20,000 bases of DNA from Vermamoeba vermiformis (GCA_045837725.1 JBEWZL010000084.1:557737-577736), one strand, 5' to 3'. Shown: positions 450 to 19,276, numbered from the stretch's first letter. Notes: generated by a model from the letters alone, not told the origin. A program made the numbers and translations.

Positions 450-2590
450 AAATGCATTAAGAAGGTCGAGAGCAGGAAGGATTGATGAAGATTGAAAAGA
501 AGAAAGACTTTGAAAAATTGATCTCCGAAAGAATGTTGCTCAAAATCACCAACTAGCCGTTACAAATATGCTAGGCTGTAATAAAATGCACATTATCTTT
601 ATAGCGATGATGGAAGCCCCAAAAAAGCGTTATTACCCAAAAAATTATGAAAAGACTCTCATGGGAGTGTTGGAAGCTCTTGCATCCAAAGTTTTGACGG
701 ATCTTAGCTCAAATCAGTGGCAAAGTGTTAGAAAAGCAGCTGGACTTCCAATCTATCGCAACGAACTATCAAAAGCATTCAATAGAACCCTTAGTGATAA
801 TTCTTCCATCGTTTGAGATTTTGTAATGGGGCTTTTTTTGAGCCTGAATTTTTAATTTTGGAGATTTTGGATCTGTACACTCAAAAACAAGCATTCAAAC
901 CTCCAGAAAAAAATGATATCAGCGTCAAGCTATCCTGGGACAATAGGAACATTTATAACAACAAGAAGACAAATGGATCAGTAGTTTTTAGCTTTCCAAA
1001 TGTGGCCAAATCTCAAAGCTCATCCAACGTACATGAATTGCAATTGCTGCAATTCCAGAGGACTCTAGCAACCTAAGAATGCTGTTAAGAGAAGTAGAGT
1101 TGGATGAATTCATAGCAGAATATAATAACAAAATTGTGAATGTTAATGGAAAGGAGTATAAAATTATTTTGTTCACATCCACGGATTGGATGGCATTAAT
1201 TGCCAAACTTGATGATATAGCTCTTCCAAATACAAGGAGCTTGGATGATCTCATATGCCCATTCTGTGGTTGTAACAAGCACTACTTAAGATTTGGTTGG
1301 CATGAGGAGCCATTCAAGCTTGGAGATATTTCATTGGAAATTGATGATTTTCCAAAAGCAGCTCTACCCTCTCTTTTATTAAAATCTCTGCATGGAGTTA
1401 CAAATATGCTTTCAAATGTCCTTGTTCTCCTCTTTAACCTGATACCCAAGAACTCAGGCTGTCGTACTCAGTTCAAGGTACTGTAACCTGCCAAATAACT
1501 CGGAATTTTTCGCTGAATTTTCCCGAGCGGATCGCGAACGAAATCAGTTACTTGGTCGAACGATTGATTAATTTAATTATATATATACATAATACACCAA
1601 ATTTAAGGCAAGCCAGCACTAATTGGCAAAAATTTTCAAACCAAATCCAAAATTAAACTAACGCGAATCCAAAATGTACAACGAATTTTGGCTTTCCTTG
1701 GGTACAAATCAACTAAAAATAATATTTTAAACCAACTTTGCGTGGTTTTGTGCAAAGCTTACCCAAAAATCAAAACCAAATCCAACTTCAATCCAACCGA
1801 ATCCAAAATAACGACCGAATTTCAATGTGATAACCAAGAATTAGGTTGTTTATGATTATAAACACCTATTCTTGTTGTGCCAAGGCCAAAATTTTGTTGT
1901 GTATGCCTAATTTTTATCGAACTACCAACGCGCGAACCGAAAAAAAAATAAAAATTCTATTTGTGTACGGCTGGATTCGAACTTGGAAAATTTACGAGTT
2001 ATTACGCAGTTTACAGTAATTCTTCAAAAAAACCTTAGTGGATGGGATGTGAAACAAAGCATGACTCCAATGCTCATGGATCCACATTTTTGGTGTTGGA
2101 TTCAGTACGAGTATTTAATAATTTTGAATACAAAGAGTGCCCCAAAAAACAAGACTTTGATGTCTTGTGAACTGCAAGACAAGCATTCATCAGTGTCTAC
2201 CATGGAAACCTTTGGTGGTTGACTGTGACTCAACATTTTATGACAAATGAAGCTTTGAGATTTGCTCAGATTGACAACGAAGCATACAATACTTTGCAGG
2301 AAGGTGTAGAACATGCTCATTTGGACGATAACAAGAGCTCTAATGTCACTTTCAAGGGTGGTAATTCGAATGCAACTGGTACCAACTGCTGGCAACAGAT
2401 CCCCAACAAGCAGCACATTAGATGAGAGTTAAACAAAAGATATCTGGCTCCAGAAGGCACTTTGCCCCTTCATTATAGATTTATAACTCAGAAGACAATG
2501 CTGGTGACTTGGAGTATCCCAAATATGCCCCTTCTCAACTAAAATGGATTAGCACTTGGTTCAAGAATGACCCAATGGACCAGTAGATGT
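450..2590 (+). mobile_element. Decayed Transib/RAG1-like DDE transposase gene (frameshifted, split by a MITE)
   Basis: Motifs across ORFs 568-816, 813-1076, 1079-1486 and 2019-2425 occur in the same order as the RAG1/Transib core: VKLSWD (first Asp), FTSTDWMAL (second Asp), CPFC (CxxC), LHG (DxxH; copy at 11.9 kb reads YDLMCGVTN), TVTQHFMTNE (cf. RAG1 TNYFHKTLAH), LQEGVEHAHLDDNK (cf. ASEGNESGNK). Several stops, frameshifts and a deletion. Confidence 0.7.
1481..2016. mobile_element. 536-bp MITE with a TA target-site duplication (Tc1/mariner-type)
   Basis: Imperfect ~31-bp TIRs: left CTGTAACCTGCCAAATAACTCGGAATTTTTC vs reverse complement of right CTGTAAACTGCGTAATAACTCGTAAATTTTC. TA flanks both ends (1479-80, 2017-18). 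Removing it restores the transposase frame (FKV|ILQKNLSGWDVKQ). Internal AAACCAAATCCAA repeats. Confidence 0.85.
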
Positions 2591-2746
2591 AAAAAATTAA
2601 ATAAAATATTTGATAGCTTACTAACTGATTGTAAAATACAGCCTTTGCTTACACCAACTTAATACCTTAATAGAAGTCAATATCCTGAGTCAAGGTTATT
2701 ATTCGGTTGGGTGGTTAATTTTTGTTTATTTTTTCATTATTTTTTT

Positions 2747-2763
2747 GGATGTGATAGTCTTGA
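2747..2763 (+). promoter_or_regulatory. Candidate shared cis-element GGATGTGATAGTCTTGA upstream of the P450
   Basis: Exact 17-bp match to 10314-10330; both copies follow TTCAT plus a T-tract and lie 50-130 bp upstream of a start codon. Confidence 0.4.
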
Positions 2764-2892
2764 ACATTGCAAGATATAATAAATAATGCCATCGGTGCCA
2801 CTTATTGAAAAGAATTGTTTTTTTTTTATTATTTCGGAACTAAGAAGAGGTCTATTGTTAAATTCAATCTGTATTCAAGGCTAAAGTGGGCC

Positions 2893-4870
2893 ATGGTAAC
2901 AATTTTAATCTTATTGTTTGTCTTCATATTTCTGCTATCTCTAGTGTACTCCAATTGGGTAAGTTGTGAATATGCACTAATTATAAGTACTAATAGATTT
3001 CTACTTAAGTACCCTGCATCATACCCTAAAGGGCCGCTGCGGCTTCCTCTCTTGGGAAATGCAGCCAACTTATTGTTCTCCAAGGAAAAACATTTTCACA
3101 AGTAACAATTACATTTTCATATGAAAGCTCACTTTTTATCACTGTTTGTAGGAAGCTGAAGGAGATGGTATCTCAATATGGTAATCATTTGGGGTTTGCT
3201 ATGCTTTATTAATTTCAACCATATTAAGGGACTTTCTTCAGTCTTACAATTGGTCAGAGTGAAATGGTAGTGTTGGCAGATGCTAATTTGTGCTATGAAG
3301 TATTGGTCAATCAAGGTTGTAATCACAGGAAATCAAATCAGCTTTTAACGCATTGATTTCAGGATCCAAGACATTGGGCAGGAGATTGACATTTGCACAT
3401 TACATTTATCAGTAAGTTAGTTATTTCAGTTACGGATAATGTCTGACAAAAGAAAAACAGAGGTTTTTTGGAGGATTGGGACAAAAAACGGTAAATACAT
3501 GTTAATACAGATTGTAGTATGACCATTATCAGACCAGAGGAATCGCGAGGCATTGCCTCTTCAAGTCCTCCTAAATGGCAAGCTGCAAGAAGTCTGGTTG
3601 CCTCTACTCTTCTTAAAGTTGACATGTTTGCCAAATTTGAGAGCATTTTGAACGAAGAAGCTCAATTCTTGGTGGATGCTATTGGTTACTTCTCTTCCAC
3701 GGCTGATAAGGTGAAGATAAAACAAATCTCATGTTTCTTAACTCTTACAGGTGGATATATGCACGCTGCTCCAGTTGACAACGTTAAATACAATGATGAG
3801 AGTTATCTGCAGCGTAAGGCTTGGAAAAATTGGGAACGAAGATTTGGTTTCAGAAGATGGCATAAGCATTTTAGCAGCAATCAACAATATTTTTGATTAT
3901 TTTTCAGCCAGTAATTTGGAATTGAGCTTACCAAAGCTGAGATATCTGCCCCATAGTAGATATACAGCATTTGTAAGCTCAGTTAAGCTACTTAGGACCC
4001 TTTTTAATAGGGCAATATCTGAAACTCCTCCTTCTTCTCTATTAGCAGAGATTTGTGAACTTACAGGTGAAAATGATCGGGAGGAGGTAATTACAATTTG
4101 CGAAGATCTGCTCTTGGCAGGCTCAGACACAACAGTAAGTTACTCTTTTCAAAGAACTTACAAGTAAAATGTTTACAGGCAAACACAATTGCATATTGTG
4201 TGAGGCAATTGGCAAATGATAGAAGCATCCAAACAAGACTGAAAAGAGAATTGCAGTTGAACCCTTCTGATAATGCCTTCCTACGCTCAATTGTTAAAGA
4301 GGTTTGGTTTGGGTGCTATGAATTTTGATGGTAATTGCTTAAGTAGACACTTCGTTTGTACCCTACTGCTCCAATCGGGATCCCTCATAAAGTGTTAGAG
4401 ACAGTTAGAATAGGATCTACAGAGATTCCCCCAGGGGTAAAGATTAAATTAAAAATCCAATAAGAATCTGACTACTTTTGAGGTTGTTATCCTCCCTTGC
4501 ATTTATGCTCTTCATACTTCCCAGAAGTGCTGGAAAAACGCTGAGGAATTCAATCCAGAAAGATTTTTGGAAGTGACATCAACTCAATGGTTCATCCCTT
4601 TTTCTGCAGGTGGCAAAGAAAATAATTTAATTTAATATTTACATTTATGTAGGACCTAGGATGTGTATTGGAAAAAAGCTTGCTGAACAGGAGATCACAG
4701 TTATTTTGAAAAGCATATTTCAAAAATATTCTCTGCATTTGGTTGGAGAAGTAGCGTGGACTGACGGTATAGTTGCCTGTCCAAAATTAACATTTTAATG
4801 TTTTCTTCTAGATGCAAAATTTACTGTTGGGCCTACCAAATTTTCAGTTTATGCTAAAACAACTGACTAA
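2893..4870 (+). CDS. Cytochrome P450 monooxygenase, ER-anchored type, ~12 short introns
   Basis: Spliced reading gives an N-terminal hydrophobic anchor (MVTILILLFVFIFLLSLVY), PKGPLRLPLLGN hinge, WQAAR, I-helix LLLAGSDTT, K-helix E|TLR, FNPERF and haem loop FSA|GPRMCIG. GT-AG introns of ~40-50 bp restore the frame; stop TAA at 4868-4870. Confidence 0.95.
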
Positions 4871-5014
4871 CCACGCTTACAATACTGAAAAGCAAATCTG
4901 CACACAATGCCAGCTTGATAGTCATGTAAAAAATTCTTAATTTTTGAAAATACCTTTAAATAAAATTTATTCATTGTTTTTTGTGATATTTTCCATACAA
5001 TCAGGGTGAAGACA

Positions 5015-5709
5015 ATGGAGATATTCACTATTCTTGAAAGCTCTGAACCCAGTGAGCAGGCTAGGGTCAAAGCTCTTATAAAAAATATACAAGAAATTGG
5101 AATAAAGAAACAAATACACGTATTATGCAACAAGCCTATTTCAGGGCTTAATGGACATTGTATTTCAGTTCCTAGCATTCAACCACAATACTTGAAGCTG
5201 TACTTGTGGAGTTTTGTTCAATTTAAGCGAGTTCTTTTCATTCAACCAGGTAGGAATATTGATATAGTCAACATTGGCTAAGTTTGACAGGGATTCTGGT
5301 TTTGCAAGACTTTTCTGTTTTGGAAAAATACTCAGAAACTTTTCAGGCAGCTCCAATGTATGATGCTCCTGACATATTTAGCAGTGCAGTAATGCTATTG
5401 ACCCCATGTACAAGAACCTTCAACATGCTTCTATGGCGATACAGTCGGCATTTAGGGGCCATGAATAATGTCGACTTATTTCTCAATGAAGCCTTTCCTG
5501 AGTGGGAGACAAATTCATCACAGCGCCTCTCTACCAGTTTTAATATGCCTTTGCCCGTTTGCAAGATTAAACCTGCTTATTGGAAGCAAAAGGCAGAGAA
5601 GGAAGGAATATATTTAATTAATTTCCAAAAGATTTCTACTGCCAAATCTGAAACTGATACTCCAGAAATAGCATATTTCAAAGAGAAGTACCTTGTGTTG
5701 ATGGAGTAA
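5015..5709 (+). CDS. Glycogenin-like GT8 family protein lacking the canonical catalytic motifs (putative pseudoenzyme)
   Basis: Two exons (5015-5249, 5291-5709; 41-bp intron). Aligns by eye to GT8 (KLYLW..FKRVLFI, AAP..PDIFSSAVMLLTP, FLNEAFPEW..LSTSFNM), but DxD reads QPG and the C-terminal HF reads NF. Confidence 0.8.
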
Positions 5710-5837
5710 TAACAGTCTGTCTGATTACTATGAATTCCCTGTATCTGTGCAGACCCATTTGTTAAACTGCTTGACACTGTGTTAAATTTGGTAGTGCTTG
5801 CCATAATTAATAAATAATTATGCAATTATTATGCAGG

Positions 5838-6035
5838 GTAGCAAGGGGCTTGCATTGGGCATTGATGACAGAGTGGAATTCATCAGGAGGCATAAAACTT
5901 GCATTGATTTCTCATCCTCCTGAGACTCATTGATTAATGGTGGGGCAAGCGGGACTCAAGTTTGCAGTACATTTCTACAAGAAAATAGAAAAACAGGGTA
6001 TGATGTGGCTTTGAAAATAGCACATCCTCTTAATG
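5838..6035 (+). pseudogene. Protein kinase N-lobe exon fragment
   Basis: AG...GT-bounded segment reading ...SS*DSLINGGASGTQVCSTFLQENRKTGYDVALKIAHP, i.e. a Gly-rich loop plus VALK; one in-frame TGA; no downstream kinase subdomains seen. Confidence 0.45.
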
Positions 6036-6272
6036 GTATGTCAATAAACTATCATATAAGGTCACCTTTCTCCAACCGCTTCACTACCAAATGTAAAACC
6101 GAAAATCACACCTGTGATTTTTATCACAAATCATGGAGAATCTTGTGTGATTAAAATTTATCACTATGAGATTCTAGTCACACTGTGATGACCGTATTGC
6201 TAGCAATACATACTACGGGATTATTCTATACTTAATAAAACACTAGCAGAATTTTGTAATTGGATAACTTTA

Positions 6273-6513
6273 TCAAAAAAACCTTGGTGGGTGGGATGTG
6301 AAACAAAGTATGACTCCAGTGCTCATGGATCCACATTTTTGGTGTTGGATTCAGTACGAGTATTTAATAATTTTGAATACAAAGAGATCCCAAAAAAACA
6401 AGACTTTGATGCCTTGTGGACTGCATTCATCAGTGTCTACCATGGAAACCTTTGGTGGTTGACTGTGACTCAACGTTTTATGACAAATGAGCTTTGAGAT
6501 TTGCTCAGATTGA
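6273..6513 (+). mobile_element. Second fragment of the Transib/RAG1-like transposase
   Basis: Near-identical to 2024-2274 (GSTFLVLDSVRVFNNFEYKE...LWWLTVTQ). Confidence 0.9.
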
Positions 6514-7457
6514 GGGAGGAACTTTTAATGTGTGGAAAAATTGGCAAAGTCCATTTTTGTCTGGAAACACGTAATTATTGTACCAAAAACTCTAACAGAA
6601 TGTACAAAAAATGAGAGTGGATGGTATGACAGGTTGGTTTTAAAAAAATAATTGGGAGTACGTCCTAATGCGATGGCAAGTATGCTGAAGTGCATTTTGT
6701 AGTATGCTCAAAAAATAAAATAGCTTTTGGTTTGTAATTCTGTGCTAGAAATTTGCACAATTGTGGAGAGTTAACTGCAGGTTCCACATGGATTTGGCAA
6801 AGAGATTTATAGCAATATGTTACTGATCAGGAACTGCCAATGACTCCAACTTGAGTGAATCTCCTAAACATTGCCGTAGCAAAGAAGTGCATTTCTCTGG
6901 TTTCTTCTTCTTTTGCAGGTTGCTTTTGTTGCTGAATTCTCTCATGGAAGGAGAGATGGTCTGGGCTTATTGATCTTCAGCTTAGGGAGGTGGCACCTAA
7001 TTTTGTTAGATTAAAGTCAACAAATTGAGAAGTCTAATTAGACTAAACATATTCATACCTATGAAGGTTAATAGTGCCATTCTTCATAATTTTGATTTTT
7101 AATCTGGTTTTATTTTACCGGATTAAATCTGTAAATTGAGATTTGTAAAAATGTGAATTTAGTTGCCAATTGAACTGGTCAACTAGCATGTTATAAATTA
7201 GAATATTCTGAACACTTTCATGTTATTCTCATGTTTATAGATGTTCTGCAGCAAGAGATATAAATTGAGTTTTGTGAATCCCGTCTAGGAGAAATTTGAA
7301 AATCCATTTTTTCATATTAACTAGGCTACCTGTAATAATTTTTTGTGATTGTATAGGTATTCTGTGGCAGCAAGTACCAGGTCCACTAAGATTTGGGTCA
7401 GTAAAATGAGTTATAAAAGAGATAAAGCTAAATCCAGTTTAGCTTTTCCTGATCGAG

Positions 7458-7539
7458 AGATGAGAGTTAAACCGTTCATTATAGATTTATAAACTCAGAA
7501 GACAATGCTGGTGATTTGTAGTATCCTAAATATGCCCCT
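7458..7539 (+). mobile_element. Third fragment (3' tail) of the same transposase element
   Basis: Matches 2420-2532 (AGATGAGAGTTAAAC...TTCATTATAGATTTATAA-CTCAGAAGACAATGCTGGTGA...AAATATGCCCCT) with a short deletion. Confidence 0.85.
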
Positions 7540-7739
7540 GCAGCTTGTAGAATAAGAATATTATTTTTTTATCATTACTGGAAGGCTTGAAAGCCCAGCA
7601 TGGTTGTGTCAATCCAAGCAATTTGAAATCATTTGGTAAATCTCCAATTTAATTTCAAACAACTCAGCCAGCATCTAAATCTACATGGACACATTGAAAG
7701 GGCAGTAAATTGAGTATATAAAAAATTCAGTATAGATTT

Positions 7740-9000
7740 AAGACGATGGTAGGACTTTGCTTACAAGTTATTTCACTGCAGTGGACAATCCTCTTCTCTT
7801 AATATCAGTGCAAAATTGATCTATATTTGAATAATTTTTGTTTGGAGTTGTGCAGTTTCAATCTGGCTGAAATGATCTTGCCATTTTGTTGACAGGTTTC
7901 ACAGTTTTGAAGTGGCACTAACAACAAGTGCATCTCTGACATCAATGAGCAATTCTAATGCAATAGTCAAATTGAACATTGGTTTTCTCATAGACTCCTG
8001 GTCTATGTCGTTTAAGGAAGCATTTAACCAGCTTCCCACTAATTTAGCAGAAGATTTCAATTTTACAAGATCTTTAGATGTTATTAACAATTTGGATAGA
8101 AAGAACAATCATAAGCATAGAGCAAGTTCATACAAGCACTATGATTCTTCACCTAGTGCAGGAGCACCAATCTTTCTATAAGGAGGAGGAATGTAATGAG
8201 TAGAGCACAATCTACTGTAGCTCATATCCTGTAACATAAATAGTTTGTCTATCACAACACCTGTCAAGTAACTTCAATTGTTACACAAGCCCGCTACAGC
8301 ACAGGAAATTTCATTGGAGACTTTTGATACACTCCTTGCATGTTATAAAATATATATAAAGCGTTCTACGATAAAATAAAAAAATTTACTTTTCAGCGAA
8401 AGTTCCTACGAAGTTGGAAGCAACTTGTACCAAAAATAGAATTTTTTTAACGGCAGTATTTTGAGCTGGCGACTTCCGTTGCAGTGTCCGTGTCAGTGGT
8501 ATTACTGCAAGCCGTTGGCGCGAACTCCGCAGCTCTTCGTGGAAGCTCGCACGGAAGTTACCTACGAAAGTTCCTGCTGCAGTGCAACTTCGTAGCAACT
8601 TTGAAACAGCAAAAAAACACCTCCGTTCAAGCTAGAACCAGTGGATAGTAGTGTACACAGCACCCCTCCACTGCTATCCACTTGATTCAGCTACGAAGAA
8701 GTGCGAGGAAGCTCGCCAGAACAAGTCGGTAACAACTTGCTACCAACTTGGTACCAAAAATAGCAACTTCGCAAAAAAGCAAATTTTTTTAAATTACCAT
8801 AGAGCACTTTATATATAAATATGAATATGGAGGACTCTACTTACTCATTATGCTGTCTACAGCACTGCATAGCTACATTGTCATTTCGATTGGTGCCAAA
8901 GGGTACAAAAATTTCACTAGCAATTACATGCTGAGATCACTGAGAGAATATAATCTTGGCGAGTTTCCATGTCCTACTTTTGGTAGTGTTGAGATTTCAT
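7740..9000 (-). pseudogene. Spliced pseudogene of unknown family, interrupted by a MITE
   Basis: Exon-like frame from ~8228 to ~7740 (DMSYSRLCSTHYIPPPYRKIGAPALGEES*CLYELALCL*LFFLSKLL...) with scattered stops, preceded by a CAG acceptor. An upstream exon-like piece at ~8845-9000 ends in a GTAAGT donor. Confidence 0.4.
8351..8817. mobile_element. ~470-bp MITE with ~50-bp imperfect TIRs in a TA-rich site
   Basis: Left TATATATAAAGCGTTCTACGATAAAATAAAAAAATTTACTTTTCAGCGAA vs reverse complement of right TATATATAAAGTGCTCTATGGTAATTTAAAAAAATTTGCTTTTTTGCGAA. Interior is CpG-rich with repeated GAAGTT/CAACTT motifs. Confidence 0.8.
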
Positions 9001-9084
9001 CTATTTGAAAAATATATCACTGAAATGAATGCTCTAAGACTTGTTTGAGAATTTATATTTATGGATTGAAGTCAAATTGCATTC

Positions 9085-10182
9085 TTACTCATTGTAAGCA
9101 GAAGCCAAAATGGCAAAAATATATTCTATCACATCAAAAGGTAACTCCAAAGATACACGAAAGCAACGATGATCTGGATTTGCTCCAAATGCACTCCCAG
9201 GAATAATTATAATATTTTTCTTTTCTTTCAGAGAGGCAGCTATATCCATGTCTTTCAAATTCCCAGGAAAATCTTTAAGTTGTACCCAAACAAAGCATAG
9301 TATCTTATTTTTGAATATCTGTATTTTAGGATAGAGAAGTGCCATTTTGTCTATCAAAACTGATCTTTGTTTACACAAGTCATCCAGCTGCTTTCTCCAT
9401 TGCTGGTAAGCATCAAGACGAGTCAAATTCACATCTGTTATTACAGAAATTACTTCTGTTAAAGCATTGGATATGTTTCCTTGAGTATGAAAGGCTAGGG
9501 TTTTGATACTCTCTGCCTCTAGTGCTGAGGGGCAGAGAAGCACTCCCAAACGGAGGTTAGGACAAGATAAAACAAATTTACCAAAGCTTATTGCTGTATA
9601 CACTCCTTGTTTGATATTGTGTATGTATGAGTTATCTTTGAAGTGCCAACAGTAAGTTGCATCAGCAATCACTTTGACATCCTCCAAGCAATTACCAATC
9701 ATTTTTAGTTCTTTTTCAGAAAATTTTTTCCCTGTTGGATTGTGGGGATCATTAAAAATGAATACATCTGGGCTGGCTTTCTGTAAGTGAGATATAGTGG
9801 TTGCATCTATTTCCCCAGCAGAATTTAATGGTATTGTGACAAAGTTGCAATTTAAGGCAGAAGCTTGAGTTTGAAACATTGGGAAAAAAGGTGATAAAGC
9901 AGCAACTTTCAACGTTCTCTTTTTTTCAATAAAGATGTGAAGAAGAGTTAAATGTATAGCATTTGTTGCACCATAAGTAATTACAATAGATGATGGATCA
10001 ATAATCCCCAGAAAATTTAAATACTGTGAAAGCTGAGCCTGTAGATTGGGGTAATGAATAACTCCTTTTTCTCTTTCAGGGTTTGAAAAAAGATGCTTCC
10101 AGTTTTTGATTAGCTGCTCTGTCAACAACAAAGGAGAGGGACAGGCAGTAGGAACTACATAGCCTGCATCAATAGGATCCAT
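9085..10182 (-). CDS. PLP-dependent aminotransferase class I/II (fold type I), intronless, 365 aa
   Basis: Motifs ITYGATNAI, SPFFPMF, NDPHNPTG, DATY, SFGK(PLP Lys)..PNLRLG and IPGSAFG..FRVS in one uninterrupted ORF. Confidence 0.93.
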   Translation of the reverse strand: MDPIDAGYVVPTACPSPLLLTEQLIKNWKHLFSNPEREKGVIHYPNLQAQLSQYLNFLGIIDPSSIVITYGATNAIHLTLLHIFIEKKRTLKVAALSPFFPMFQTQASALNCNFVTIPLNSAGEIDATTISHLQKASPDVFIFNDPHNPTGKKFSEKELKMIGNCLEDVKVIADATYCWHFKDNSYIHNIKQGVYTAISFGKFVLSCPNLRLGVLLCPSALEAESIKTLAFHTQGNISNALTEVISVITDVNLTRLDAYQQWRKQLDDLCKQRSVLIDKMALLYPKIQIFKNKILCFVWVQLKDFPGNLKDMDIAASLKEKKNIIIIPGSAFGANPDHRCFRVSLELPFDVIEYIFAILASAYNE

Positions 10183-10313
10183 TATGGTTGACCAATAGAA
10201 TTTATATTAGTCTGTTACTTCCAGCACAAGCCAAAACGAAAATACAATATTACTACTTACTATATTTTTAAGAGTGTGTTTGTAATTCTAAATATAATTT
10301 TTATTCATTTTTG

Positions 10314-10330
10314 GGATGTGATAGTCTTGA
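10314..10330 (+). promoter_or_regulatory. Second copy of GGATGTGATAGTCTTGA in the ~200-bp divergent promoter of the aminotransferase and GT8
   Basis: Exact match to 2747-2763; lies between the ATGs at 10182 (-) and 10380 (+). Confidence 0.4.
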
Positions 10331-10379
10331 TAGTTTTGTTGACGATTACCGAACAGTGAACCATTTATTTTTCATAGCC

Positions 10380-11152
10380 ATGTTTGCATATGTTACTTTC
10401 GTTGGTACAAACAATGAATACATTGACTATGTTATAGTATTGCAGAGATCTTTGCATAGGCATTTGAATAAGTACCCTTTGCTATGTGTAATTACCAAAA
10501 CTGTTAGTGAAGAAAACATTCTGAAACTGGCATCTGAGAACATCAAAACAAAGGTGTTAGAAAAAGATGTAGAGTTTTCTACAAGTACCAAGCACAACCT
10601 CAGAGGTCCGGTAGTTTTCAATAAGCTACAATTGTGGACTTTTCTGGAATACTCAAAGTTAGTGTATTTGGATTCAGGTATGAAAGAAGAAGTTGAAGTG
10701 CAAGTCTAACATTTGTAGATACAATTGTATGTCAAAATATTGACCACCTTTTTGATCTGAATGTGGATTTTGCTGCCTGCCCTTCATCAGTTTCACCTGA
10801 TTTGTTTAGTACAGGAGTGTTTGTTTTCAAGCCTAGCATGGACCGCTATAACGAGGTGATGGACCTCTTACAAAAGAGCTCTGAGCTTAATGGAGATGGA
10901 TTTCTGCTGAATTCCATCTTTCCTGCTTGGAATGATTCTTCAAATGGCAAATTGCCCTTTGGTTACAACATGAGCATTTCTGCTTCGTGGGATTTCCCTG
11001 AATACTGGAATTGGAGGCTTAAGCAAAACCGCATATTTGTAGTTCATTTTGTAGATAGATGGAAACCTGACAGACCAATGCCCTCTGCAAATAACTTAAC
11101 AAAACAAATTCTTGAATATTGGATGGAGCTCAAACAATTGAAACACAATTAA
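10380..11152 (+). CDS. Glycogenin/galactinol-synthase-like GT8 glycosyltransferase
   Basis: Two exons (10380-10677, 10719-11152; 41-bp intron). AYVTFVGTNNEY, FNKLQLW..EYSKLVYLDS|DTIVCQNIDHLF (DxD intact), FSTGVFVFKPS, LPFGYN, VVHFVDRWKP. Confidence 0.93.
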
Positions 11153-11172
11153 TTCCTGTAATTTAGTAATGG

Positions 11173-11745
11173 TTATTCAATAAATAGAGGAAAGAGTTTA
11201 TTAAATGGAAAGAGATTTCTGTCATACTTTGCATTGAGGTTACAGAACGCTGCATAGTCTGGTCCTTCAATAGCATTACACTGCTCTTCTGTAGATGTTA
11301 CAAAACTGTAGTTATATGGTAATTGTATGCATGTCATCAGGCAGTTTTCCACCTGAAATATTTGAAGAAAGAAAGAAACAGAATAGCCCAAAACTCATAT
11401 TCTGCAAATTGGCCCCTCCAGGGGCATAATGTGAAGGATTCTTAGCCTGTAAGGGAATACCAGATAAATTGCAGTCACATTGTTATCATGGAATAAATAT
11501 TCCTTGATGGTTTCCAAGCTGGTATGAGAAAAAAGCAGAAAAAGAGTCAAATTAATAAAAGAAAGGCTTGATAAACAACTTCTCCAGCAGTTCTAACCTC
11601 CACTTCTTTTGCTTGCGGTCAAAAACAGACCATTTAGGTATACTGAAAATCCAAAAAATTGCAATTCATGAAAAAAATTGTTTCATGAAACAATAACCAG
11701 CTCTGGTAGTGTCATTGCATTTGTGATAATGACAGATCCAAACAT
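11173..11745 (-). pseudogene. Possible decayed spliced gene fragment, unidentified
   Basis: Short exon-like frames separated by pyrimidine-rich AG acceptors; no continuous reading frame or known motif could be assembled. Confidence 0.2.
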
Positions 11746-11909: not shown

Positions 11910-12177
11910 TTATTAAAATCTCAATGCTATGATTTGATGTGTGGAGTTACAAATATGCTTTCAAATGTCCTTGTTCTCCTCTTCAACCTGATACCCAAAA
12001 CTTTTGTAGGTGGGATATGAAACAAAGTATGACTCCAGCACTCATGATAAAGTTCTTTTCCCATAACTTACATTCACAACTGAGTGAGTTTTTTATTTGA
12101 TCAAATGAACAAATGGCCTGAAGCTCCTGTGAATTTTAACTTGCCCAGAGTCAGATCCACAGTCTAGTGTTGGATTC
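11910..12177 (+). mobile_element. Fourth fragment of the Transib/RAG1-like transposase, retaining segments deleted in the other copies
   Basis: Matches 1377-1449 and 2040-2103; reads LLKSQCYDLMCGVTNMLSNVLVLLFNLIPK and has ~105 extra bp between CTCATG and GATCCAC. Confidence 0.85.
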
Positions 12178-13834: not shown

Positions 13835-14262
13835 ACTTTGGTGTACAGCGCCTCGCACCAGTGTACACCTAAGTGTATGCCCCTTTGCACCCATACACTT
13901 TAGTGTACGCCTCTTCGCACCCATACACTTTGGTGTACGCCTCTTCGCACCTGTGTACACCTAAGTGTATGCCCCTTCGCACCCATACACTTTAGTGTAC
14001 GCCCCTTCGCACCTGTGTACACCTAAGTGTATGCCCATTCGCACCATACACTTTAGTGTACGCATCTTCGCACCCATACACTTTGGTGTACGCCCCTTCG
14101 CATCCATACACTTTAGTGTACACCTCTTCGCACCTGTGTACACTTTAGTGTATGCCCCTTCGCACCTGTGTACACCTAAGTGTACGCCCCTTCGCACCCA
14201 TACACTTTGGTGTATGCCTCTTCACACCAGTGTACACTTTGGTGTACCTTCACACCCATGCA
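13835..14262. repeat. Minisatellite of ~13-14 mixed 30/32-bp units with a TACAC-N4-GTGTA hairpin core
   Basis: Units CCATACACTTTAGTGTACGCCCCTTCGCAC and CTGTGTACACCTAAGTGTATGCCCCTTCGCAC. Confidence 0.95.
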
Positions 14263-15150: not shown

Positions 15151-15652
15151 ATACGCTAATTTATCGGGTGTTAATATCCACCACGTACTAACTTGTATAT
15201 TATTTTACTTACACCTGCGGCCGTTCGCGTTCAAGGTCTAGCCTCGCGGAGATGCATCGCACTTTGAAATGCACCAATGAACAATCTGAATGTTAAATGA
15301 GTTAGTAATTATTGTATTGAGTAGTTGATAACTTACCTGTAATCAAGATATGCCGTTGGATCGCACCATTTATATGAGAAATATCAAAAAACATCGGGGT
15401 TAGGGTTGTGAAAGCTGTTTTCGAAAGACAATCCTTCTTTGGCTCAAGAAGGGAATTCAAGAAGAAAGACAGGCAGTGATGAAAATCCCTTCCCCTACTA
15501 GGCAATCCCTCCCTGAGACAGGAAGGGATTTCGAAAGAACAAAGGGAAAAATGAAGGAAATTTATATATATAACAAGGCTTGGCCATATAGGGGCTAGCC
15601 CAGTTATGACCATCTTGAACACAGGGTTAACTGAAGTTCTGAGGCAGCAAAC

Positions 15653-15870
15653 CAAGTTCCGAGGCTGTCGAAGCAAGTCCCGAGGCTGTCGAAGCAAGTT
15701 CCGAGACTGTCGAAGCAAGTTCCGAGGCTGTCAAAGCAAGTTCCGAGGCTGTCGAAGCAAGTTCCGAGGCTGTCGAAGCAAGTTCCGAGACTGTCGAAGC
15801 AAGTTCCGAGGCTGTTCAAGCAAGTTCCGAGGCTGTCGAAGCAAGTTCCGAGGCTGTCGAAGCAAGTTCA
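15653..15870. repeat. 21-bp tandem repeat CAAGTTCCGAGGCTGTCGAAG, ~10 copies
   Basis: Directly visible near-perfect array with degenerate flanking units. Confidence 0.97.
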
Positions 15871-16059: not shown

Positions 16060-16695
16060 TACTGTGACTGCACTGCAAAAATTCATCCAAGTCCAACATT
16101 CGTGACCGCACTGGTCGCAAAGTAAAAATGACACGAAGTTCAACATTGTGACCATGCTGGTCACGAAGCGAAAATTCATCCAAGTCCAACAGTCGTGACC
16201 GCGCTGGTCACAAAGTAAACTGATGCGAAGTTCAGCACGTCACAAAGCAAAAACCAATCCAAGTCCAACGTCATGACCCCACTGGTCACAAAGTAAACTG
16301 GCGTGAAGTTCAACATTGTGACCATGCTGGTCACGAAACGAAAATTCATCCAAGTCCAACAGTCGTGACCACGCTGGTCACAAAGTAAACTGATGCTAAG
16401 TCAACCAATCGTGACCACGCTGGTCACGAAGCAAAAATTCATCCAAGTCCAACAGTCGTGACCGCGCTGGTCACAAAATAAACTGACACGAAGTTCAACA
16501 TCGTGACCGTGCTGGTCACAAAGCAACAACCAATCCAAGTCCAACGGTCATGAGTCTGAGCAAATGTTAATCAAGGCAAACTCTCGTGACCGTTCAGTTC
16601 ACGAAGCTAATGAACCAGATCCAACCCGTGAACGCACTGGTCAAAAACCTATTCAATTAAAGTGAAATGCTCACGACCGCTCCGGTCACGAAAGA
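16060..16695. repeat. Higher-order tandem array of ~43-47-bp units with palindromic core GTGACC-N5-GGTCAC
   Basis: About 13-15 cores separated by two alternating linker types (AAAATTCATCCAAGTCCAAC and AAAGTAAACTGA..AAGTTCAAC); decays at both ends. Confidence 0.92.
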
Positions 16696-17507: not shown

Positions 17508-17808
17508 AGGGGCGTCCCCGTGACGCGGACGGGGGTCTGGTCAAACTTGGTCAACAAGGGGGCGTCCCCATGGCGCGGACGGGGGTCTGGTCAAACTTGG
17601 TCAACAAGGGGGCGTCCCCGTGGCGCGGACGGGGGCTGGTCAAACTTGGTCAACAAGGGGGCGTCCCCGTGGCGTGGATGGGGGTCTGGTCAAACTTGGT
17701 CAACAAGGGAGCGTCCCTGTGGTGTGGATGGGGGTCTGGTCAACAACAAGTGTTCCCACGGCACAGATCAGGGTCTGGTAAAATTGGTCAACAGGAGGCG
17801 TTCCTGTC
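17508..17808. repeat. 50-bp GC-rich tandem repeat, ~5 copies plus a decayed one, hairpin-forming
   Basis: Unit GGGGGCGTCCCCGTGGCGCGGACGGGGGTCTGGTCAAACTTGGTCAACAA; CGTCC...GGACG inverted repeat in each unit. Confidence 0.95.
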
Positions 17809-18098: not shown

Positions 18099-19276
18099 TT
18101 ACAAGGAGTAAATGTCTAAATTAATGAAAGAATACATTTGTTTAATTTGAGCAATTTTTTTGGCACCGTTGCCTTGAAGAACCATTTTGATGAGAACAGT
18201 GACAGATACAGGAGAGGTCGGGTCATTGATGTCAAAATTAGAAGAGCAATCAAGAAGCAATAATTTCTTGCCATTTTTAATCATATCTTGCAACAATCTA
18301 AGGCATGCAGGCTTCGCAGTTTCTAAAACCCATAGATAAGGCAAAATGAAGAACAAGTCATGTGCCATGGAAGGAGTGATAATGATGGCGCTCGTTTCCC
18401 CCTATTATGACAATTAGATAAGAATTATTGAATGCAAATAGTAAACTTACCAATTGCCAGCCTAAAAGTTCTTTTGACGGTTCCTTGCGGTGAATTTTTT
18501 CTTGCAACTGCAACATTGTTGTGTTGATTGTAGGATTGCTTTTGAATAGTTTGAAGCATTCATAAATGCCTTGAACTGTAATTGAGTTCCTGGATGAATT
18601 GATAACCTACTTGAATGGTTAATATGTAAAGGCAAGTGAAACAAAGGGCACGTACCGGAATATGGGAAATAGCTGGTTGAAAATGAGCTTGCAAGGTGTA
18701 GAATACTTTGGTAGTATCTCTAATTACAATCTTGGTGTTAGAAGACAATAAAATGCCAGAAAAAACAACTTACGTAATATCAATAACCTCTAAGTCCAAA
18801 TGTCGTTGTCTTAACAAGGAGATTGTTTTGGTGTCGCTGACCTTTGCGCAAAAAATTGAAGGGGGTTGGGCTGGTAGTGAAGGAGGCTGAAAGTTTGTTG
18901 TTGCCTCGCAGTCATCGCTCTCAAGGGCCGTTGCAGGACAACCATTTGGAGAGAAGCGCTCAAGTACTTCAGGTTCGGAGCTTGTGTCTGCAAAACTAAT
19001 GAGCTTGTGAAGGGCAAAAGAAGTAAGGGAACAAACCATCTTCGGATTGAATCTTCTGTTTGCCCATATTGTGCACTCTTTGTACTGTAAAAACTATCAG
19101 TAAATTATAAAAATAATTATGATATAACTTACTTTCTTCTGCCGTTGGTTTGTAGCCAGCAGGTTTTCCTATTTTGCGTGCCAGATGTCAGTCAGTCACT
19201 TGTCACGAAAAAAAAGAAATGATAATAGTTACAACTTACCAGCATAAAGAAGCATTATTTTATCAGCAAGGTTCAT
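18099..19276 (-). CDS. Seven-exon gene of unknown function (~285 aa)
   Basis: Six ~48-71-bp GT-AG introns give an open frame MNLADKIMLLYA|GKPAGYKPTAEE|IQRVHNMG...|DTSSEPEV...DIT|DTTKVFY...HIP|VINSSRNS...GWQL|GETSAIIITPSMAHDLFF...DIYSL*; no family recognised. Confidence 0.65.

Follow-up and report, generated by a model that had tools for sequence, protein, structure and literature searches.

The DNA analysed here is a stretch of 20,000 nucleotides (nt) from Vermamoeba vermiformis (GCA_045837725.1 JBEWZL010000084.1:557737-577736), in the following called the window. Its gene region (2893-11152) carries four open, spliceable genes: a cytochrome P450 gene (P450), a gene related to glycosyltransferases of family GT8 (GT8_1), a gene for a pyridoxal 5'-phosphate-dependent enzyme (PLP enzyme) and a second GT8 gene (GT8_2). 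An initial annotation had interpreted them as a small biosynthetic cluster that makes or modifies an aminoglycoside-type or amino acid-derived glycoside. Its observation that four genes with open frames are located within ~8.3 kb is confirmed by the spliced models (Table 1). The families proposed for the P450, the PLP enzyme and GT8_2 were recovered with Pfam. For GT8_1 the proposal is half right: the protein is a paralogue of GT8_2 but has no Pfam match. Judged by its sequence, each gene is a new and very distant member of a known family, i.e. P450, class-I PLP enzymes and glycogenin/Gat1-type GT8.

Profile scans were performed on stop-to-stop open reading frames (ORFs), 26 of at least 55 amino acids (aa) between 2809 and 11592 (cut E<=0.01) and 81 more in the remainder of the 20 kb, in total 107. 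Genes composed of very short exons could escape such scans. The spliced genes appear as short ORFs with Pfam matches in pieces, as is typical of eukaryotic genes that have small introns. The other 19 of the 26 inner ORFs yielded no Pfam family at E<=0.01. The four genes comprise ~1,300 stop-free codons, although stops make up 7% of random codons in this DNA; for each gene, an open frame has a chance probability of 1e-7 to 5e-16. All splice-site dinucleotides of the 14 GT..AG introns are intact (28/28). The introns have a mean length of 45 nt and a GC content of 0.29 vs. 0.36-0.40 in the exons, and each of the 14 has a YTNAY site 5-30 nt from its 3' end, a site present in 48% of 2,000 control windows. 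TAA terminates all four genes and is followed within ~100 nt by AATAAA (ATAAA in the case of the PLP gene). A tblastn search with the four models against the window revealed no additional copies or fragments, and neither an Rfam family nor a tRNA nor a telomere-like repeat was found in the window. Judged by intron size and context, none of the origins considered (bdelloid rotifer, nematode, fungus or protist) is favoured over the others, and the Atlas taxa were uninformative. Short contigs from the aquifer metagenome X3, which originates from a different study, match parts of the P450 gene, GT8_1 and GT8_2 with zero differences. This means, the DNA is not an assembly artefact. On the PLP gene, there is no X3 contig at a depth of 2-3, which proves nothing. 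Three other water/aquifer metagenomes share small portions of the words of the stretch and were not used as evidence.

Table 1. Genes and other features of the window, with positions counted from its first nucleotide
Feature	Position	Strand	Remarks
Upstream element, copy 1	2731..2763	+	core GGATGTGATAGTCTTGA; ends 130 nt before P450 ATG
Cytochrome P450 gene	2893..4870	+	ATG at 2893, stop ends 4870; 13 exons, 12 GT..AG introns of 40-51 nt, 475 aa
P450 exons 1-6	2893-2958, 3010-3101, 3152-3180, 3229-3315, 3363-3411, 3461-3490	+	modelled by eye, no RNA support
P450 exons 7-10	3533-3710, 3751-4134, 4179-4301, 4347-4436	+	GT..AG borders keeping frame
P450 exons 11-13	4483-4609, 4653-4766, 4812-4870	+	GT..AG borders keeping frame
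P450/GT8_1 spacer	4871..5014	+	144 nt, P450 stop to GT8_1 ATG
GT8_1	5015..5709	+	exons 5015-5249, 5291-5709; one 41-nt intron; 217 aa
Decayed dispersed repeat, middle copy	6273..7539	.	between the gene pairs; no protein domain recognised
Class I/II (fold type I) PLP enzyme	9085..10182	-	intronless; 365 codons 9088-10182, stop 9085-9087
PLP/GT8_2 divergent intergenic region	10183..10379	.	197 nt between ATGs; contains upstream element copy 2
Upstream element, copy 2	10298..10330	+	in PLP/GT8_2 divergent region; ends 50 nt before GT8_2 ATG
GT8_2	10380..11152	+	exons 10380-10677, 10719-11152; one 41-nt intron; 243 aa
Tandem satellites	13853-14247		30/62-nt units
Tandem satellite	15634-15869		21-nt unit, 11 copies, 92%
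Tandem satellites	16085-16553		46/92/170-nt units
Tandem satellite	17509-17743		50-nt unit

Four ORF pieces of the P450 gene match PF00067 (E 7.7e-5, 5.7e-5, 2.8e-10 and 1.7e-7). Taken singly, two pieces score above the gathering score of 22.8 (40.0 and 30.9 bits) and two just below it (22.1 and 22.5 bits). The translation starts with a hydrophobic anchor followed by a Pro-rich hinge and contains AGSDTT in the I-helix, ETLR in the K-helix and PERF. The Cys-ligand loop FSAGPRMCIG fits FxxGxRxCxG, and the ORFs bearing it are those with the Pfam matches at 2.8e-10 and 1.7e-7. The definitions of these motifs (Cys-ligand loop, ExxR, PERF and (A/G)GxD/ETT in the I-helix) are established knowledge. 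Anchor, hinge and canonical motifs are shared with microsomal class II P450s such as animal CYP2, CYP17 and CYP3. Exon 11 is weakly closest to CYP17A2, CYP2R1, CYP17A1 and CYP3A5 in the PDB (E 4.8e-4 to 4e-3). In contrast to the microsomal enzymes, exon 8 (128 aa) is unmatched, both in the PDB at E<=0.01 and in a word-indexed protein index of 5.8 billion clusters, and no CYP family can be assigned. The protein would be a monooxygenase of class II anchored in the endoplasmic reticulum that needs a P450 reductase.

The PLP enzyme matches PF00155 with 78.4 bits (cut-off 19.7, E 7.9e-22). In an alignment of 28 sequences, composed of the enzyme and 27 of the 150 library matches listed, all members share Asn148, Pro149, Gly151, Asp174, Tyr177, Lys202 and Arg342, and Arg211 is nearly invariant. 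In class-I enzymes such as aspartate aminotransferase, the Lys forms the Schiff base, the Asp contacts the pyridine N, Asn and Tyr contact O3' of PLP and an Arg binds the alpha-carboxylate. The AlphaFold model has a mean predicted local distance difference test (pLDDT) of 86.5 and a predicted template modelling score (pTM) of 0.88. With this model, Foldseek retrieved at least 500 PDB chains at E<=0.001, headed by 1-aminocyclopropane-1-carboxylate (ACC) synthase, the carbon-sulfur (C-S) lyases of the PatB type and kynurenine, aspartate and prephenate aminotransferases, with template modelling (TM) scores of 0.7-0.8, 15-20% identity and E ~1e-18. Curated NCBIfam cut-offs were missed for GntC, HisC, PatB, VioD and aspartate aminotransferase: The best model, GntC, yielded 73.1 bits vs. 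a cut-off of 415 (1.9e-20), hisC 61.4 vs. 276.6 and PatB 51.5 vs. 340; aspartate aminotransferase, CobD and VioD (4.5e-12) are also far below their cut-offs. Similarly, the 12 best library matches of the enzyme, when compared with NCBIfam, fall among mixed generic aminotransferases, none of them at a cut-off among the rows listed.

A full HMMER search over 1.84 billion representatives gave 689 matches for the PLP enzyme at E<=1e-3, four of them at E<=1e-10; the best (5e-12) is 25% identical. The word-indexed search found one match (27% identity), and in the metagenome contigs none was found. Thus the PLP enzyme is intact and lacks an ortholog among the 1.84 billion representatives. In size, its 365 aa resemble GntC, VioD and HisC, and it is in register with the 356-position GntC profile. 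With PatB C-S lyases, ACC synthase and kynurenine aminotransferases it shares fold type I and the residues for binding of PLP and the alpha-carboxylate, whereas its identity to all class-I PLP enzymes compared is only 15-29%. The N-terminal Glu and the Ser-Ser described for GntC were not noticed in the PLP enzyme, although no alignment was aimed at them. The protein is predicted to be a short class-I enzyme that binds an alpha-amino acid and could be a transaminase or an enzyme of the C-S/gamma-lyase type.

GT8_2 is recognised through both of its exons. Exon 1 matches PF01501 with 27.6 bits (cut-off 24.3) and, in phmmer searches against the PDB, glycogenin-2 (1.3e-4); exon 2 matches Gat1 (6mw5, 5.3e-16) and glycogenin-1 (6.7e-15). 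Its DxD motif, DSD, lies at the exon junction, and the conserved His is present and aligned to the glycogenin His. DSD stands opposite Asp117-x-Asp119 and the His opposite His231 of Gat1, the three residues described as the Mn ligands of Gat1 (10.1101/764241). An intronless relative encoded by metagenome contig L001 can be aligned to the spliced model through the exon junction without interruption (31% identity in 220 columns, E 1e-28), which supports the intron. The nearest relative found is ~31% identical over the whole model and 36% in the best segment. Exon 2 has one match among the metagenome contigs, on a contig of 1,379 bp without flanks, and none among longer proteins, viral contigs or prokaryote genomes. 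GT8_2 aligns over its whole catalytic domain with Pythium Gat1 (6mw5) and glycogenin-1 (3t7m), both cytoplasmic retaining GT8 glycosyltransferases. With 243 aa it consists, like PuGat1 (266 aa), of the catalytic domain only, and neither a signal peptide nor a membrane anchor is seen in its sequence. Unlike in Gat1 and glycogenin, the HxxGxxKPW motif reads H-F-V-D-R-W-K-P-D, and unlike glycogenin, GT8_2 has no glycogen-synthase-binding tail. Since it scores equally for Gat1 and glycogenin, it was assigned to neither of them. GT8_2 would be a cytosolic, Mn-dependent retaining GT8 enzyme, expected to move an alpha-hexose from a uridine diphosphate (UDP)-sugar.

GT8_1 is different. No Pfam family was found for it at E<=0.01, and its exon 2 is more weakly related to PDB entries (phmmer: Gat1 6mw5 2.6e-5, glycogenin 1.2e-3). 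In blastp, it is 24% identical to GT8_2 over 178 columns (E 5e-19). Both genes have a phase-1 intron at the identical codon position within the DxD motif, and they are old local paralogues. Where the two proteins align without gaps, IQPG of GT8_1 faces LDSD of GT8_2 and LINF faces VVHF. This means, QPG replaces DxD and Asn replaces the Mn-binding His. As far as the alignment tells, GT8_1 has lost all three metal ligands and is not a conventional transferase; it can be called a descendant of the GT8 family, not a demonstrable enzyme of this family. The initial annotation had counted two GT8 glycosyltransferases among four tailoring-type enzymes. The first number has to be corrected, as GT8_1 lacks DxD and His and with them all three Mn ligands, and the four genes are reduced to three families, as GT8_1 and GT8_2 are local paralogues. 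Still, the GT8_1 frame of 217 codons is open (chance P = 1e-7). Since a neutral copy would decay, an open frame at 24% identity argues for a retained protein that is non-catalytic or has an altered function. GT8_1 may therefore be a pseudoenzyme or a non-catalytic partner rather than a second transferase.

An active GT8 enzyme beside a paralogue that is perhaps purely structural is known from plant GAUT1 with GAUT5/GAUT7 (PMC7533613), the nearest precedent for GT8_1. The parallel is loose: According to the same paper, all GAUT1-family proteins keep DxD and HxxGxxKPW, whereas GT8_1 has neither DxD nor the His. Furthermore, GAUTs are type-II proteins of the Golgi, whereas GT8_1 and GT8_2 look cytosolic.

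The four genes are arranged in two tight pairs, as the initial annotation had described. Its gap of 145 bp between P450 and GT8_1 measures 144 nt, and its divergent promoter of ~200 bp shared by the PLP gene and GT8_2 corresponds to 197 nt between two divergently oriented ATGs. The first spacer contains AATAAA ~93 nt past the P450 stop. An acceptor-like site, a pyrimidine tract with CAG (5004-5014), ends 11 nt before the GT8_1 ATG. A similar site, TTTTTCATAG (10369-10379, pyrimidine tract with TAG), ends 2 nt before the GT8_2 ATG. Their positions could reflect either introns in the 5' untranslated regions or spliced-leader trans-splicing with an operon-like first pair. A fusion of P450 and GT8_1 by exon skipping was considered by hand and rejected; the phases do not fit, and then a stop follows.

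Upstream of both pairs, a short element is found in the same orientation. Its two copies are 88% identical over 33 nt and 95.7% over a 23-nt stretch, and the similarity stops there. Two exact copies of the 17-mer GGATGTGATAGTCTTGA are present in the 20 kb, both on the plus strand, while ~0.04 occurrences would be expected by chance even with three mismatches. It is the sole positive hint of a co-regulation of the two pairs. However, X3 contigs bear the element with other flanks and in tandem (joint 2763>10289, loose ends at 2696 and 2755). Because of these other flanks, the element is probably a short dispersed repeat.

Between the genes, the initial annotation had seen decayed transposon or pseudogene DNA. 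Dispersed repeats are indeed present there, but Pfam detected no transposon protein domain in the ORFs inside 2893-11152. One dispersed repeat is present in decayed copies, located upstream of the P450 gene, downstream of GT8_2 and in the region that separates the pairs: 2024-2274 is 92% identical to 6273-6513 and 2466-2532 93% to 7472-7539, and 1393-1454 matches 11942-12002 within a third fragment at 11942-12046. An ORF of 149 aa on the plus strand (1037-1486), in which a Cys-Pro-Phe-Cys-Gly-Cys stretch is found, matches no Pfam family. The 3' part of this ORF recurs at 97% downstream of GT8_2 (11942-12002), and the ORF is probably what remains of the coding sequence of the dispersed repeat. 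Between GT8_1 and the PLP gene, an imperfect inverted repeat (8351-8428/8732-8817, 74% over 87 nt) surrounds 300 nt with a higher GC content. It looks like a small foldback element or one of the MITE type (miniature inverted-repeat transposable element).

Expression was assessed in three RNA-seq runs from two samples with the same species label, using ~13 million records from each (46-48% of a run). In the 9.2 kb of 2401-11600, 19, 23 and 11 reads were placed, 52 of the 53 only partly on the stretch. They are confined to the T-rich segment 2719-2834 and have poly-T loose ends. Specific reads on the four coding regions were found in none of the three runs, which include no positive control. Every bin over GT8_1, the PLP gene and GT8_2 has zero depth, and over the P450 coding exons the depth is effectively 0. 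Absent expression had been named in the initial annotation as an argument against its own proposal, and absence is what these three runs without a positive control yielded. Either the locus is silent in these data or the RNA came from a strain or organism without the locus.

Close homologues of any of the four genes were not found in metagenome, viral and prokaryote collections with single-exon queries. For the spliced genes, the remote protein searches used one exon at a time. The word-indexed protein search is insensitive: GT8_2 exon 2 is unmatched there despite values of 1e-15 to PDB glycogenins. The absence of homologues is firm solely for the PLP enzyme, for which the full HMMER search is available.

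Up to ~13.5 kb, the window is AT-rich with a GC content of 0.32-0.39; beyond, it consists of a block with 0.43-0.51 that is full of tandem satellites. This block contains four distinct satellites between 13853 and 17743, so that the gene region adjoins ~4 kb of satellites. Pfam matches to HALZ and collagen-like families in it are repeat artefacts. A minus-strand ORF at 13297-13578 matches the chromodomain PF00385 with 26.7 bits (cut-off 25.1) and may represent the tail of an integrase from a chromovirus-type retroelement; other retroelement domains were not found. Another minus-strand ORF (18102-18401) matches the C-terminal third of DUF6939 (PF22075, 30 bits vs. 27). Together with further short minus-strand ORFs between 17870 and 19190 it may constitute one multi-exon gene. 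Beyond the named genes, the Pfam scans of the 26 and 81 ORFs returned the chromodomain, DUF6939, repeat artefacts and sub-threshold chance matches. The statement of the initial annotation that no polyketide synthase (PKS) or non-ribosomal peptide synthetase (NRPS) backbone gene is present agrees with these scans, as none of the 107 ORFs has a PKS, NRPS, terpene synthase or similar domain. Likewise, they revealed no transporter, regulator or scaffold-forming enzyme, with the reservation that genes with short exons may escape Pfam.

How can this locus be interpreted? It would be an accessory-gene neighbourhood and not a dedicated pathway, in which two tight gene pairs are embedded amid decayed copies of one dispersed repeat. 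The setting would be a repeat-rich and AT-rich eukaryotic stretch with introns of ~45 nt and no RNA-seq reads on the genes in the runs examined. Each gene would be an intact, strongly diverged member of its family, most likely with a substrate of its own. Repeat-rich compartments commonly gather lineage-specific genes. That the four are functionally independent accessory genes in such a compartment is the interpretation towards which we lean, if only somewhat. Gene structures, family memberships, catalytic residues, the paralogy, the repeats and the absence of close relatives are observed; the functional independence of the genes, like their subcellular locations and individual reactions, is what we infer from them. 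The apparent enrichment in enzyme genes is to one half due to local duplication, as the paralogy of GT8_1 and GT8_2 indicates (E 5e-19, common phase-1 intron). As two of the four are local paralogues and one of these is without an active site, the adjacency of four enzyme genes is an especially weak prior for a pathway. Furthermore, none of the three families can be linked to a subfamily from a known pathway; in NCBIfam, the PLP enzyme stays far below the cut-offs, and its Foldseek matches are undifferentiated.

Two criteria for a cluster give different answers here. At least three non-homologous enzyme genes are adjacent, namely P450, PLP enzyme and GT8 within 8.3 kb, while a scaffold-forming or signature enzyme is not seen among the 107 ORFs with Pfam. 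P450s and class-I PLP lyases act together in the gliotoxin (GliC/GliI) and glucosinolate (CYP83/SUR1) pathways. Similar to these pathways, a P450 gene lies near a gene for a class-I PLP enzyme in the window, and PatB-type C-S lyases are among the neighbours of the latter in both sequence and structure. In contrast to them, there is no NRPS, CYP79, glutathione S-transferase (GST) or GT1 partner, and the sugar enzyme belongs to GT8. In the library searched, no paper was found that mentions GT8, cytochrome P450, an aminotransferase and a biosynthetic gene cluster together. The proposal of a single pathway was derived from adjacency. The data neither support nor exclude it.

Several observations weigh against the independence of the genes. 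All four are intact and none has a close relative, which fits fast-evolving specialised metabolism. The exact 17-nt element upstream of both pairs in the same orientation could be a cis-element shared by them. The pairs themselves, one in tandem with 144 nt and an acceptor-like site and one divergent with 197 nt, look like co-transcribed or co-regulated genes. In addition, the negative RNA-seq result lacks a positive control. Finally, a trio of P450, PLP enzyme and glycosyltransferase is unlikely to occur by coincidence, yet this argument is post hoc, because any run of enzyme genes would have been flagged.

If these observations are given more weight, the locus becomes a true but silent specialised-metabolism cluster, in which PLP enzyme and P450 would modify an amino acid or amine and GT8_2 would add an alpha-hexose. 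GT8_1 would then be a non-catalytic partner of GT8_2, and the upstream element would co-regulate both pairs. We consider this unlikely. It can draw on three enzyme families in two tight pairs within 8.3 kb, on the exact 17-nt element, on intact catalytic motifs in P450, PLP enzyme and GT8_2 and on the lineage-specific character of genes without close relatives. The sub-threshold NCBIfam matches of the PLP enzyme include the natural-product enzymes GntC (1.9e-20) and VioD (4.5e-12), but neither comes near its cut-off, and the scores for hisC and aspartate aminotransferase are comparable. Inducible clusters are usually silent; nevertheless, zero reads fell on the genes in three runs, and no backbone enzyme, transporter or regulator was recognised. 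Conserved linkage was not seen, as no relatives were found, and the upstream element may be a dispersed repeat, given its different flanks in contigs from a metagenome. The initial annotation itself had remarked that glycogenin-type GT8s are not the usual enzymes for this purpose, and they are not known as natural-product transferases, with galactinol synthase as a small-molecule exception. A more explicit version, a silent lineage-restricted cluster in which the P450 and the orphan PLP enzyme reshape an amino acid, GT8_2 caps the product with an alpha-hexose, GT8_1 serves as a subunit and GGATGTGATAGTCTTGA acts as the switch, is rather improbable.

Two further explanations concern the origin and the fate of the genes. 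On the one hand, the region might be a horizontally acquired gene island, in which a prokaryote or virus was the source of at least the PLP gene and the neighbours of this gene are unrelated residents or arrivals. The PLP gene is intronless vs. 12 introns in the P450 gene and one in each GT8 gene, the nearest Atlas clusters of the enzyme are bacterial and one is from a phage, its best PDB and NCBIfam matches are bacterial enzymes, and the context is rich in repeats. However, with a best match of merely 25% identity no donor lineage can be named, an Atlas row from another domain is no sign of transfer according to the Atlas's own warning, and in codon usage and GC content the PLP gene is similar to its neighbours (codon cosine 0.87-0.90), so that we give this origin little credence. 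On the other hand, the genes might be recently dead or dying relics, i.e. non-functional open frames in a silenced heterochromatic region. Such a fate would agree with the lack of an RNA signal, the loss of the catalytic metal ligands in GT8_1, the extreme divergence of all four genes from known proteins and the decayed repeats and satellites around them. It is very improbable in view of ~1,300 stop-free codons (chance P 1e-7 to 5e-16 per gene) and of 14/14 introns that keep GT..AG and a branch-site-like motif. The PLP enzyme has kept every invariant catalytic residue, the P450 its motifs and GT8_2 both DxD and His, and a GT8 copy drifting neutrally to 24% identity would carry stops. The related possibility, named in the initial annotation as a refutation of its proposal, that the genes are independently captured fragments evolving neutrally is unlikely: all frames and 28 splice dinucleotides are intact, and three of the genes retain their catalytic motifs.

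Independent accessory genes, the interpretation favoured here, would still make this locus instructive. Adjacent 'tailoring' enzymes in repeat-rich DNA, half of them via local duplication, are insufficient for a cluster call. Three of the genes encode intact enzymes, the PLP enzyme foremost, that are about as far from known sequences as recognisable family members get, and GT8_1 is a clear case of a GT8 paralogue keeping its frame after loss of the metal site. If the genes nevertheless formed one pathway, they would represent a backbone-free metabolic cluster from a source other than plants, fungi and bacteria. This would imply a small-molecule role for a glycogenin-type GT8 and would be of interest to those who mine eukaryotic genomes for new chemistry.

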